From a virus (lineage: Duplodnaviria; Heunggongvirae; Uroviricota; Caudoviricetes): a DNA stretch of 56,879 nt. Shown here one piece after another: positions 24,001 to 27,000 of this stretch. Each line of letters opens with the position of its first letter. Within the stretch, counting starts at the first letter, position 1. The position numbers were made by a program. Where the stretch lies: the IMG/VR virus record IMGVR_UViG_2541047887_000008; one strand, 5' to 3'.

Positions 24001-27000
24001 TATATAAGGTTTATCACAACATGTGTGTACGCCATCAAACCACGAGAAATAATCAATTATGACGCAGGTATCGTATTAATTGATCTGCGTCAAATTAACG
24101 TAAAAGCAACTTCAGATAATACAAATCAGCAACACTGAATATGGGGAAACATTATGTCATCAAAGAACAGAACCCGCAGAACAACAACCCGCAACATCCG
24201 ATTTCCAAACCAGATGATTGAACAAATTAACATCGCTCTTGATCTGAAAGGTTCAGGAAACTTTTCAGCGTGGGTTATTGAAGCCTGCAGAAGAAGGCTG
24301 TCAACAGAGAGTTCGGGTATGAATTACATAATTAAGTAACATGGTGTTCACAGAACACGCAGTTACCGGACACATCAGTTTTCCATTCGCTCCCCGGCAG
24401 TACAGGCTTCCCCTCTGACGGGATAGCCTGAAAAAATAACACAGAAAATTATTTGTTATAATTAATATAACTTACTCAAAAAAAAGCGACGAGAAAATCA
24501 GCATCAACGAACAATAAGCGCCAATACGTGATAACAAATGGCAGCCATATTTATCTGCAGTATAAGCAATGGACAGGATAACCACACCAGAAACCGTCAG
24601 CATAAAATCCATTTGAACTTCCCCGGACAAAATCGACTCATCTAAAGATTTACAGCTCTTTTTATTATCAATATGTTAAAAGTAAAATAAACAGATGTTC
24701 AATAACACGAATACAAAAACGTGCTGAAATTCAATGAATCCATTTCTGTGTCATCAATTAATAGTGATAAACATCCGGCTTCTTCCACCATCGCACCGGA
24801 CAGGCGACTATGAGGGGACAACGCCGCGCTCCGTTAACGCGGTAAACCCCGGTGTGTATCGTTTTTGATTATCCCCGCACACTCGCGCAGAGGAGTCTCC
24901 CTGTCGGGCTGCGGTCTCTGTTAATGAGGGAATACAGCGACGATACGGCGCATCAACAAAACTTATTTCAGGCACTGAGTGCGGATATAGTCCTGTGCCC
25001 CTTCCAGTTGCTTGTGCATCGTCATCAGCCGCTCTCTGAGGGTGAAATAATCCCGTGTAACGGTGTCTGCCAGTTGGGGGCCGGTTGCATTATCCACGCC
25101 GGAGGTGGTGGGGGCTTCACGCACGGAGCCTGGACAGGTGGCGTTGATCCGCAGGCGCTTACGACCAGCGGCAACATCAGCGCGCAGAGTTTCATTTTCA
25201 GCTCTCGCATCGGATAATTCCCTCGAGTATTTTGCATCGAGCGCAGCAACATCGCGCTGGCGCACCTGCATATCAGTAATGGTTGCGTTCGCCAGCTTCA
25301 GTTCACTGGCTTTGTTATCGCGCTGCGCTTTGTAGGTAATCGCGTTATCACGGTAATGGTCTGTTGCCATCCACAGCGCACCACAGGCCACCAGCAGAAT
25401 AACGATAAACGCGGAAAGCATTCGGTTTATGTTCACCCCAGCAACCCCGACGAAGACAACATCATCCAGGCCATGGAAAGAAAAAGAGCAACCAGCATTA
25501 GTGAAAATGAAATGCCGACAATTACACAGAGGATCTTCGCCAGCGTTATGAGTTTGTCTGACATGCTTAATCCTCCCTTCACGATTTCAACGCAATGACC
25601 AGTTTTGCCAGCCCATACAGCATCGGGGACACAGCAACACCGACCGCCACCCACTTAATGGCAAAAGCCAGTGCTCTGCTGATGTCATCAGTTACAGGCG
25701 CTTTCAGTTCAAGGCCATTTTTCATAGTCAACCTCAACAGAATTCGTTTATACTTCGCCATGTTCTCCCTTGCCTTACTCAAGGTCAGAAACACAAAACC
25801 CCGCTTGGTACCAACAAACGGGGTTTTTACTTTTATTCACTTACGTTTCGCCAGTTCGCAGGATTTCGTGTTATCCGCCCGCGTGGCCATACCTTATTTT
25901 TCAGCAAAATATTCTGCTTATCTGTCGATTCCCCAGCACGCCAGCGCGCTCTCCTGGTCACGACGGGATACCTGACCATAACAGTTATTTGAGCGGATAC
26001 GGCAGTCTCTGCCACCGTCCTTAATCCACCAGCGAATCGCCTCACACGCTCCCCTGCGATCACCTGCATTAATTCGTTTATAAAACGTCGACGGGAAACA
26101 CTTACCGGGACCAATGTTGTACGGACAGAATGACGCGATCCCCGCTTTCTGGGGTTCACTCAATGGCACTCTGATGTTTTTCTCCACCCATGCCAGCGCC
26201 TTATCACGCTCAATGGCGTTAACCCGGTCGCATTTTTCCTTCGACAACTTCATGCCCGGGACGACAGGTTTACTATCCACCAGGATGGCACCGCGGCAGA
26301 TGGTCCAGATACCCGCGCCATCACGGTATGCCGTGGTGTGGTTACCTTCCTTTTCATCCAGAAACTGGTCGAGGATTTCAGGCGCAGGCGCACCTGCGGC
26401 AATCAGCGCCAGAACGGCAGCCGACAGGCCGTATTTGATTTTGGTGTTCATGGATATTTATCAGGGTTTATCGATTTCAAATCCCTGGATATGTTAAGTC
26501 TTCAGGCCAGCGGTGGAGTCTTCAGAGAACCAGTAATTATTCCCGGTAGTTTTCCTCTGTAGGTTATCAACACATCCTGCGCCTCTAAAATTACGGGGCG
26601 CTTTTCCGGCAACGGACCATCCCCTTCACATAACCCGGCAGCAACATCCATGAAAAACTGCTTCGCCTGCTTTTTCGCCTCAGCTTCGTAAAACTCCAGC
26701 GTGGCATCTTCAGTACGGTCAAGACTAATCGCCACATCTGGCAACAACAGTGACGGATACCCACCAATTTCCAGTGCCACAGTAACAGTAATCTTATCCG
26801 GGTAATTATTTATCCCTTTAACAACCAGTTCGTATTTTTTCTTCATCGCTTTACTCTCCCCGCGCCGCCTTACGCCGGTCCTCTCTGATTTTGAAATACA
26901 GGTTAGTCAGATATGTCAGCAGCCCAAACAGCAGACTCCCCAGCACGCCTATTGCCGCCCACTGAGACGGGGAAACCCTGTCCAGCAACTGCAGGAACCA

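Follow-up and report, generated by a model that had tools for sequence, protein, structure and literature searches.

A YdfR-family gene that behaves like optional cargo between the holin and endolysin genes of a lambdoid prophage

The ORF located between the pinholin and the SAR endolysin genes of the window (the whole 56,879-nt stretch of viral DNA analysed here, IMG/VR record IMGVR_UViG_2541047887_000008) genuinely belongs to the YdfR/DUF1327 family, which is already known and annotated, and functionally unexplained. Judged by comparative sequence data, ydfR behaves like an optional, dispensable, moron-like cargo gene rather than like lysis machinery. On balance we favour the reading that a late-expressed YdfR is carried as optional cargo in a hypervariable slot between S and R, that its N-terminal domain would act on host RNase E and adjust late RNA turnover, and that translation of R may be changed as a side effect. 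Unrelated cargo was one of two roles considered in the original prediction and is the alternative favoured by the evidence. The lysis genes of the window, and ydfR with them, are all located on the minus strand, which the original prediction did not give, and are arranged as follows:

24963..25436, minus strand: Rz i-spanin gene, 157 aa, with Rz1 embedded
25025-25252, embedded in Rz: Rz1 o-spanin ORF, lipobox start at about 25195
25918..26451, minus strand: SAR endolysin gene R, 177 aa, Phage_lysozyme match with E 2.3e-23
26452..26501, minus strand: R leader, 50 nt, without recognisable Shine-Dalgarno sequence
26502..26846, minus strand: ydfR-family gene (DUF1327), 114 aa, ATG start, 100% DNA identity to the WP_021556320.1 gene
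26505..26624, minus strand: C-terminal 40 aa, GDGPLPEKRPVILEAQDVLITYRGKLPGIITGSLKTPPLA, low structure confidence (pLDDT below 50)
26625..26846, minus strand: conserved N-terminal domain, aa 1-74, three beta strands (5-14, 18-27, 37-43) and a long helix (50-74)
26851..27066, minus strand: S21-type class II holin (pinholin) gene S, 71 aa, Phage_holin_2_1, MYQM dual start at 27066 and 27057
26854..26861, minus strand: Shine-Dalgarno sequence GGGGAGAG within the last holin codons, read from the sequence

The flanking genes were assigned correctly before. The gene upstream of ydfR gives a match to Phage_holin_2_1 ("Bacteriophage P21 holin S") with E 2.3e-32, and its product is 99-100% identical to the holin proteins from phage 86 and PA5; R has a hydrophobic, SAR-like N-terminus and is followed by Rz and Rz1. 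Likewise, the expected good Shine-Dalgarno sequence is present in the 3' end of the holin gene, whose stop codon TAA (26853-26851) is separated by 4 nt (AGCG) from the ydfR ATG at 26846. The announced 50-nt distance to the endolysin gene was also found, between the ydfR stop codon TGA (26504-26502) and the endolysin ATG at 26451. WP_021556320.1 is annotated as "YdfR family protein" in E. coli SF-088. A second ydfR copy sought within the window was not found. A promoter and terminator scan between S and R gave nothing credible, RNA folding of the ydfR-R spacer indicated no significant structure (z = -0.27), and an Rfam search of the S-ydfR-R stretch returned no family.

Membership in the family is given by a match to Pfam DUF1327 (PF07041) of 153.1 bits (cut-off 25, E 2.5e-45) over residues 1-112 and by a full-length match to phrog_406 (E 4.5e-64); NCBIfam contained no model matching the window protein. 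Neither a transmembrane segment nor a signal sequence is present, the maximum Kyte-Doolittle value over 19 residues being 1.18, and the protein is acidic (pI 5.2). Thus the predicted soluble 114-aa protein is real. Its N-terminal domain of about 72-74 aa, acidic as well (pI 4.9), carries the family motifs YEL-V and (F/Y)YE-EA, and the residues Y5, L7, Y53, E54, and A57 are invariant or near-invariant among members from E. coli, Serratia, Sodalis, Yersinia, and metagenomes. This domain is the sole part that the window protein has in common with K-12 YdfR and the 72-76-aa stand-alone homologues; the family ranges from 72 to 287 aa and combines one conserved N-terminal domain with many different C-termini. 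The full-length AF2 model (mean pLDDT 64) is confident in this domain only; a model of the domain itself gave a beta3-alpha fold with a pLDDT of 88.3 and a pTM of 0.77.

The C-terminal module is a mosaic that alleles with differing N-terminal domains have come to share by recent recombination, at a dS of about 0.1 and a dN of about 0.1, and the 3' end of ydfR is a recombination mosaic. The last codons (TPPLA and stop) are homologous to DNA which in longer alleles is situated downstream of the ydfR stop codon and upstream of the R leader.

Among 5426 complete genomes of E. coli, ydfR-like DNA was detected in 3006, at up to 8 matching sites in a single genome, and the order holin-YdfR-lysozyme in at least 2562. 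The same or a near-identical 114-aa allele, with at least 80% query coverage and identities of about 80% to 100%, is present in 1258 genomes. The type locus is the order essQ-ydfR-rrrQ of the K-12 Qin prophage, followed by Rz/Rz1 homologues, and the window locus corresponds to it, with ydfR directly behind a class II holin gene and followed by a lysozyme gene in a lambdoid prophage. H-19B and BP-4795 have the same order, as do most Stx1a and Stx2c phages. Since the 21-type cassette very often carries ydfR in E. coli prophages, its presence is not an anomaly, and the assumption that S and R are normally contiguous was too strong. The gene is nevertheless extra in comparison with the many PA5-type phages that have a direct S-R junction. 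As to whether it is a standard, characterised component of this cassette type, ydfR is indeed named and standard (DUF1327, "YdfR family protein" in PGAP), whereas its function is uncharacterised. The main value of the present analysis lies in the corrected expectation about the phage 21-type lysis cassette; being present in over half of the complete genomes, YdfR is among the most widespread E. coli prophage genes without assigned function.

The suggested comparison of S-R junctions with related phages revealed both empty and filled loci. At least 80% of the S-ydfR-R query is covered in only 86 of the 368 phage records, and ydfR is absent from about 280 of the 368, which share about 91-94% DNA identity with the window in S and R. 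An example of these phage 21/933W-type S-R-Rz/Rz1 cassettes is PA5 (S and R proteins 99% and 93% identical to those of the window), which has the same GGGGAGAG in the 3' end of S, but neither ydfR nor the 50-nt leader; S and R are joined directly, the R ATG is located at the position of the ydfR ATG, and about 280 other records were classed alike. In the empty loci, R starts 4 nt past the S stop codon behind GGGGAGAG, which in the window is used by ydfR. In mEp460, PhiR42_1, Evi, phage 86, 2H10, and PhiR40_1, ydfR starts exactly 4 nt past the S stop codon, and R is preceded in filled loci by CCUGAUAAAUAUCC-AUG, lacking a purine-rich motif. Due to the existence of empty loci, clean deletions of the whole slot do occur, and the retention of ydfR is not forced.

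The left border of the slot is fixed at the S stop codon. The 50-nt leader is kept before R in all examined loci with a separate R leader, regardless of what is situated between S and R; in case of mEp460 and PhiR40_1, only its last 17-28 nt or so are kept. Being conserved irrespective of slot content, the leader delimits the variable slot on its right side. In Qin and PhiR42_1, the two genes overlap instead, so that R is coupled to the stop codon of ydfR. Furthermore, the first residues of R co-vary with the state of the slot, MNTKIKYG being associated with the filled slot and MSRKLRYG with PA5, the sole empty-slot phage that was read.

In H-19B, BP-4795, Stx2 phage 86 (orf5), and many Stx1a/Stx2c phages, the gene between S and R is 94-98% identical in protein sequence to that of the window and has the same junctions. 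The alleles of phage 86 (268 aa) and Stx1_14744 (263 aa) are long and carry additional C-terminal modules, whereas the window has the short 114-aa form, and phage 86 possesses the convergent gene orf6 in addition. YdfR of the Qin prophage (b1555, P76160; PF07041; PHROG 406) resembles the window gene in its location, as it starts 4 nt past essQ, a class II holin gene, and precedes the lysozyme gene rrrQ and Rz/Rz1 homologues. Its N-terminal domain is 46% identical over residues 1-74, but the sequences are unrelated after residue 74, and the Qin ydfR stop codon overlaps the rrrQ start, whereas the window has the 50-nt leader.

Distant members of the family occur in non-lysis contexts. DUF1327 genes are located between tail chaperone and tape measure genes in Serratia, between tail genes I and J on an IMG/VR contig, before tail gene L in Sodalis, and between Q and the holin gene in Morganella, and the 72-76-aa stand-alone versions of other genera are situated away from any endolysin gene. 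Scans with single proteins, P0177 against genomes and P0175 against viral sequences, gave no matches. In phage 86, Evi, Serratia, and the IMG/VR contig (L009), the gene is directly followed by a convergent ORF of about 91-104 aa. The partners of the latter two share 53% identity and each match phrog_10490; those of phage 86 and Evi show no detectable relationship to them (16-19% identity). Pfam and PHROG searches assigned the C-terminal extensions and convergent ORFs to families of unknown function only, and the window allele possesses neither a convergent partner gene nor a C-terminal extension.

YdfR evolves several-fold faster than its neighbours by the substitution estimates: for phage pairs with both measured, and with 2H10 and PhiR40_1 excluded from the S and R values, dN amounts to 0.43-0.58 for the N-terminal domain, compared to 0.03-0.15 for S and 0.06-0.07 for R. 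The dN/dS ratio is 0.04-0.13 for S and R, and 0.28 for the N-terminal domain at long range (compared to mEp460). Since the domain is kept intact with a dN/dS below 1 and stand-alone versions exist, we argue that the protein itself is under selection.

Structure prediction and fold search, which had been proposed as a check, yielded a confident model of the N-terminal domain and no function. For the full-length AF2 model, the best Foldseek match in PDB had an E of 0.2, and a sequence search against all PDB chains gave nothing below E 0.85. For a dsRBD or another RNA-binding alpha/beta domain, an alpha-beta-beta-beta-alpha fold with significant structural similarity was looked for; all fold matches were below the level that indicates homology. 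No PADLOC-DB v2 family matched the window protein, the long alleles, or three of the four partner ORFs, and the partner on L009 gave a marginal match to LmuB only (E 0.001, 15.7 bits).

The sole experimental lead on YdfR function comes from a 2026 paper (PMC13232886). In it, a two-hybrid signal was obtained between residues 1-72 of K-12 YdfR and RNase E 1-597, and Strep-tagged YdfR co-purifies RNase E 1-598 together with DNase-resistant nucleic acid; its authors could not rule out a contaminant as the RNA carrier. Few transcripts were altered by overproduction of K-12 YdfR, and growth arrest is, in the accessible part of the paper, reported for YegJ only. Binding of RNase E is shown for the K-12 protein only, and the C-terminus of this allele is unrelated to that of the window. 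From the K-12 homologue, 46% identical over 74 aa, we infer that the window allele may bind RNase E as well, and any effect on RNA decay would follow from the same inference. It also speaks against this reading that an acidic domain (pI 4.6-5.8) is unexpected for a direct RNA binder. Beyond this screen, the literature found contains incidental mentions of ydfR only, namely a 3-fold increase of the streptomycin MIC upon overexpression, and the listing of a "ydfR" cluster among toxin-antitoxin loci in one comparative study (PMC10575684). No experiment on the lysis phenotype of ydfR deletion or expression was found in the literature, nor was a discussion of ydfR in the accessible part of a survey of Stx-phage lysis cassettes.

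In the favoured reading, ydfR would be transcribed together with the late (lysis) genes, as the gene arrangement suggests, and translated from the ribosome-binding site which R uses in phages without ydfR. The product is a small, acidic, cytoplasmic protein conserved only in its beta3-alpha domain of about 74 aa, and this domain would dock on the catalytic half of host RNase E, possibly on RNA. With such a docking, RNA turnover would be adjusted late in the lytic cycle, and neither membrane nor cell wall would be disrupted by YdfR. In addition, the insertion parts R from the Shine-Dalgarno sequence embedded in S and provides it with a conserved leader without one, and thus endolysin synthesis is probably lowered or re-tuned in cis.

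This effect on R could also be the main one: displacement of R from the S-coupled ribosome-binding site would lower the S:R translation ratio and limit premature, holin-independent lysis by the SAR endolysin. Occupation of the GGGGAGAG site by ydfR, retention of the leader without Shine-Dalgarno sequence in every examined filled locus having a spacer, the coupling by overlap instead in Qin and PhiR42_1, and the co-variation of the first R codons with the slot agree with a mainly cis-acting role; we nevertheless consider it unlikely, due to the intact N-terminal ORF with its confident fold and dN/dS of 0.28 and the persistence of stand-alone versions far from endolysin genes. T4 rIII and P1 lydB are separate soluble antiholin genes and a precedent for a regulator of lysis acting in trans, i.e., a cytoplasmic YdfR that would bind the pinholin, for instance at the basic cytoplasmic C-terminal tail of the holin, or the membrane-tethered SAR endolysin, and delay or sharpen triggering. 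LydB is named as an antiholin in PMC9025707. By analogy, RIII and LydB may be compared to YdfR as small non-membrane proteins whose genes directly follow a holin gene and are co-expressed with it, but homology is lacking, ydfR is dispensable in near-identical cassettes, and its relatives occur away from holin genes. In E. coli and Shigella phages, ydfR is always located 4 nt past the holin stop codon and upstream of R, it shares the ribosome-binding site region of the lysis genes, and the acidic N-terminal domain could pair with the basic holin tail. Such invariable attachment could reflect a functional tie to lysis and not mere recombinational linkage. However, constraint would be expected in a protein that binds the highly conserved holin tail, and YdfR evolves fast; it lacks the membrane or periplasmic location of a lysis component as well as a presence wherever the cassette is present, its distant members are situated in tail modules or after Q, the transcripts altered by K-12 YdfR were few, and growth arrest was, in the accessible part of the paper, reported for YegJ only. 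A regulator in trans is thus quite improbable, and the role in lysis timing considered in the original prediction found no direct support.

Still less probable is a defence, counter-defence, or toxin-antitoxin-like module, with DUF1327 as sensor or adaptor combined with swappable C-terminal effectors and sometimes a convergent partner. It would account for the highly mosaic architecture, the recurrent convergent ORF, the fast evolution, the moron-like positions, and the aforementioned listing among toxin-antitoxin loci, but no form of YdfR has a PADLOC match, the extensions and partners have no Pfam or PHROG function, the two pairs of partners are not detectably related, the window allele has neither partner nor extension, and few transcripts responded to overproduced K-12 YdfR. 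The least probable explanation in our view is a decaying remnant, the 114-aa allele being a deletion derivative of longer alleles, trapped between selected genes with little or no function. While the origin of its last codons, the about equal dN and dS and very low structure confidence of the C-terminal module, and the many truncated, fused, and frameshifted versions in databases point to decay, the N-terminal ORF is intact, the family-invariant residues are kept, and the allele is found in 1258 genomes.

Protein modulators of RNase E comprise RraA and RraB of the host, T4 Srd, which binds the N-terminal half, and phiKZ Dip, which binds the C-terminal scaffold. The analogy to YdfR would lie in small size, in the phage origin of Srd and Dip, and in binding of the catalytic half by the K-12 N-terminal domain; no sequence similarity of YdfR to any solved structure was detected at E <= 0.1. 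In Stx1a and Stx2c phages, ydfR belongs to the operon by which Shiga toxin is released as well. If the RNase E lead is true, YdfR would be a temperate-phage addition to the short list of RNase E-targeting phage proteins, and may influence when and how strongly late genes, those for toxin and endolysin among them, are expressed. It is tempting to speculate, and we regard this as a doubtful though conceivable extension, that phages carry the DUF1327 N-terminal domain as a module that docks on the catalytic half of RNase E, that by its fusion to swappable C-terminal modules and co-expression with lysis genes lambdoid prophages would reprogramme RNA decay as the lytic cycle ends, that the S-R junction is an unrecognised diversity hotspot of host-targeting cargo, and that the convergent partners are part of a two-gene mobile module.

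With regard to annotation, the note "homologous to topoisomerase IIA subunit" in the phage 86 record for orf5 has no Pfam support. The anatomy of the S-R slot, bordered by the S stop codon and by the leader of about 50 nt without Shine-Dalgarno sequence, is useful for the annotation and comparison of Stx phages.

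The 114-aa ORF between the pinholin gene S and the SAR endolysin gene R is, almost beyond doubt, a member of the YdfR/DUF1327 family, and both family and locus are already known. Its product clearly belongs to Pfam DUF1327, scoring 153 bits where 25 is the cut-off, and also to PHROG 406. Over 1.3 kb, from S through the ORF to R, the window matches E. coli SF-088 at 100% identity; there, the NCBI pipeline labels read, in order, 'class II holin family protein', 'YdfR family protein', and 'lysozyme'. Exactly the same place, the holin-lysozyme interval, is occupied by the name-giving gene ydfR (b1555) in the K-12 Qin cryptic prophage, with the order essQ (holin), 4 nt, ydfR, rrrQ (lysozyme), and rzpQ/rzoQ. 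Re-reading of the ORF, the holin stop, and the endolysin ATG on the minus strand confirmed the coordinates of the original prediction.

Features of the S-R junction in the window
26861-26854, minus strand: purine run GGGGAGAG within the final holin codons
26853-26851, minus strand: holin stop codon, followed by 4 bases and the ydfR ATG at 26846
26502-26846, minus strand: ydfR-family ORF of 114 aa, from ORF reading
26504-26502, minus strand: stop of this ORF; a 50-nt gap leads to the endolysin ATG at 26451

The neighbours had likewise been named correctly: a 71-aa class II holin with MYQM dual start and a Pfam match to 'Bacteriophage P21 holin S' is located upstream, and downstream come a 177-aa lysozyme, its N-terminus hydrophobic and of SAR type, and then Rz, in which Rz1 is embedded. 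The YdfR-family protein is mildly acidic and has no membrane segment, in agreement with its earlier description as soluble. A terminator-like hairpin with T run (27106-27134, minus strand) is situated just 5' of the holin start. It falls inside the 97-aa version of the holin ORF that results from mechanical extension; the holin itself most likely begins at 27066/27057, with the MYQM dual start.

According to the best-supported reading, the window gene is one of the known accessory genes that lambdoid prophages may carry or lack. Of 5426 complete E. coli genomes, at least 2562 contain a place that covers 80% or more of an S-ydfR-R query, and ydfR-like DNA was present in 3006, at up to 8 places per genome. 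Phage records with full-length copies comprise H-19B, BP-4795, Stx2 phage 86, and the majority of Stx1a and Stx2c phages; of the records named Stx2a-converting, only two have one. At the protein level, only 94 clusters came out of a profile search against 1.84 billion representative sequences. The gene had been regarded as an extra one, and S-R junctions of related phages bear this out, with the middle part (ydfR) missing in about 280 of the 368 phage records matching the query. In case of phage PA5, the holin (99% protein identity) is joined directly, across 4 nt, to the endolysin (93% protein identity), whereas ydfR lies in between in the window. In the alignment, the PA5 R ATG takes the position of the window ydfR ATG, both behind GGGGAGAG, and thus the insertion takes over a ribosome-binding site otherwise serving R.

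Where ydfR is present, a ~50-nt leader without purine-rich motif stands in front of R and ends ...CCUGAUAAAUAUCC-AUG. This leader is kept in the window, phage 86, Stx1_14744, 2H10, and Evi regardless of upstream content, and mEp460 and PhiR40_1 keep its final ~17-28 nt. Instead of such a leader, Qin and PhiR42_1 show an overlap of the ydfR stop with the R start. The R N-terminus co-varies with the state of the interval, being MN(T/A)KIKYG or similar with ydfR and MSRKLRYG in PA5. RNA structure prediction for the leader was not significant and Rfam gave no match to it. Judged from these alignments, a cis effect of the insertion on endolysin translation is likely.

Only residues 1-74, the N-domain, are shared family-wide; over these, K-12 YdfR and the window protein are 46% identical, and beyond them unrelated. 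Alleles of 72, 103, 104, 114, 116, 162, 176, 183, 263, 268, and 287 aa combine this domain with differing tails. The C-terminal 40 residues of the window protein are common to alleles with N-domains only ~60% identical, and their DNA is nearly identical between those alleles (dS ~0.1); this sharing stems from recent recombination, not constraint. One family protein (P0158, 112 aa) shows the reverse module order, a coiled-coil segment followed by an 'EKRPIILEAQ.VWITYKGKLPGRITGSLKTPP' module, and is devoid of the N-domain, so the C-terminal module circulates independently of it. DNA homologous to the five final codons of the window allele lies, in long alleles, 3' of the ydfR stop and just 5' of the R leader; the 114-aa form thus appears to have arisen by deletion from longer alleles. 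An inverted repeat, CGCCAGTG...CACTGGTG, is found just 5' of the conserved R leader in long-allele loci and could be a terminator for cargo or convergent genes; the window retains only its right arm, which now encodes the C-terminal end of the 114-aa protein.

Inverted repeat in long-allele comparison loci
L002 2986-3060, L003 2886-2960, L014, and L008: upstream of the R leader, read from aligned sequences

In phage pairs with both values measured, which exclude 2H10 and PhiR40_1 for S and R and give small counts of consistent direction, dN of the N-domain amounts to 0.43-0.58 versus 0.03-0.15 for S and 0.06-0.07 for R. The dN/dS of S and R is 0.04-0.13.

Distant members are stand-alone N-domains of 72-76 aa from Serratia, Sodalis, Yersinia, Morganella, and metagenomes, and their genes, as far as listed here, are placed outside lysis cassettes.

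Context of other DUF1327 genes
Serratia: flanked by tail chaperone and tape measure
Viral contig (IMG/VR): flanked by tail genes I and J
Sodalis: precedes tail gene L
Morganella: flanked by Q and holin
With convergent ORF: L010/L011 3001-3519; L009 2501-3024; L008 1501-2040; L002 1855-2985; L013 3001-4042

Unlike in the window, a small convergent ORF follows the DUF1327 gene in Serratia, the viral contig, Evi, phage 86, and Morganella. The partners in Serratia and the IMG/VR contig share 53% identity, and phrog_10490 matches both; this hints at a mobile two-gene module placed at varied sites of tail operons. The partners of Evi, phage 86, and Morganella fall into other PHROGs of unknown function. 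The distribution of the family is that of a moron, i.e., optional cargo in late operons.

The original prediction had offered two roles, modulation of lysis timing or unrelated cargo. The latter is well in keeping with an optional gene whose relatives occur in non-lysis contexts, and we consider it probable that the window gene is cargo and not a lysis component. A trans role of the YdfR protein in lysis timing would fit the fact that in E. coli the gene invariably adjoins the holin stop, but is disfavoured because the gene is dispensable and evolves fast, the protein has no membrane segment, and relatives sit in non-lysis contexts. For a defence-type role, the architecture is the only hint, and the databases gave no support: PADLOC matched no YdfR form, and among the partner ORFs gave a single marginal match (LmuB, E 0.001) for one ORF. 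Structure prediction with a diverse alignment was confident for the N-domain (three strands and a long helix; pLDDT 88.3, pTM 0.77), while the C-terminal 40 residues adopted no confident fold. Foldseek searches against PDB and BFVD returned no significant match, and PDB sequence search and NCBIfam none for the window protein.

The sole study found with YdfR data, published in 2026, screened for proteins that partner RNase E (PMC13232886). In this screen, an RNase G bait recovered a clone of K-12 ydfR codons 1-72 three times, a two-hybrid signal was obtained between full-length K-12 YdfR and RNase E 1-597, and RNase E 1-598 together with DNase-resistant nucleic acid co-purified with Strep-YdfR; YdfR overproduction altered few transcripts, and ydfR was essentially silent during normal growth (PMC13232886). 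The remaining literature mentions YdfR incidentally, and the available sections of a Stx-phage lysis-cassette survey do not discuss the gene. As optional cargo, a YdfR-family gene would be expressed together with the late genes, and its conserved acidic N-domain would probably contact host RNase E or RNA-containing complexes. That the RNase E mechanism holds for the window allele itself is rather doubtful.

The window represents a lambdoid prophage with integrase, cI-like repressor, DNA methylase, three tRNAs, NanS-p-type esterase, lysis genes, terminase, and lambda-like tail genes; stx is absent from it.

Further features of the window
25579-25794, minus strand: 71-aa ORF with hydrophobic C-terminus, phrog_1115 (unknown function), no Pfam match
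25827-25795, minus strand: strong terminator-like hairpin of 13 pairs, directly after R and before the 71-aa ORF
27217-29070, minus strand: intact NanS-p-type protein of 617 aa (DUF1737, SASA sialate O-acetylesterase, DUF6645)
29293-29483, minus strand: sRNA family STnc100 (RF02076), strong Rfam match of 139 bits (gathering score 47)

A second variable slot exists between R and Rz, filled by an antirepressor gene in 933W-like phages and phage 86 and by the 71-aa ORF in the window. The NanS-p-type gene is situated directly 5' of the holin gene. Despite S-ydfR-R DNA identical to the window, SF-088 carries a DUF1737 fragment alone at this place, and therefore the window does not stem from the SF-088 locus as such. 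The STnc100 match has the three tRNA genes on one side and the NanS-p gene on the other, at the position of stx in Stx phages, with a terminator-like hairpin (29323-29304) at its 3' end.
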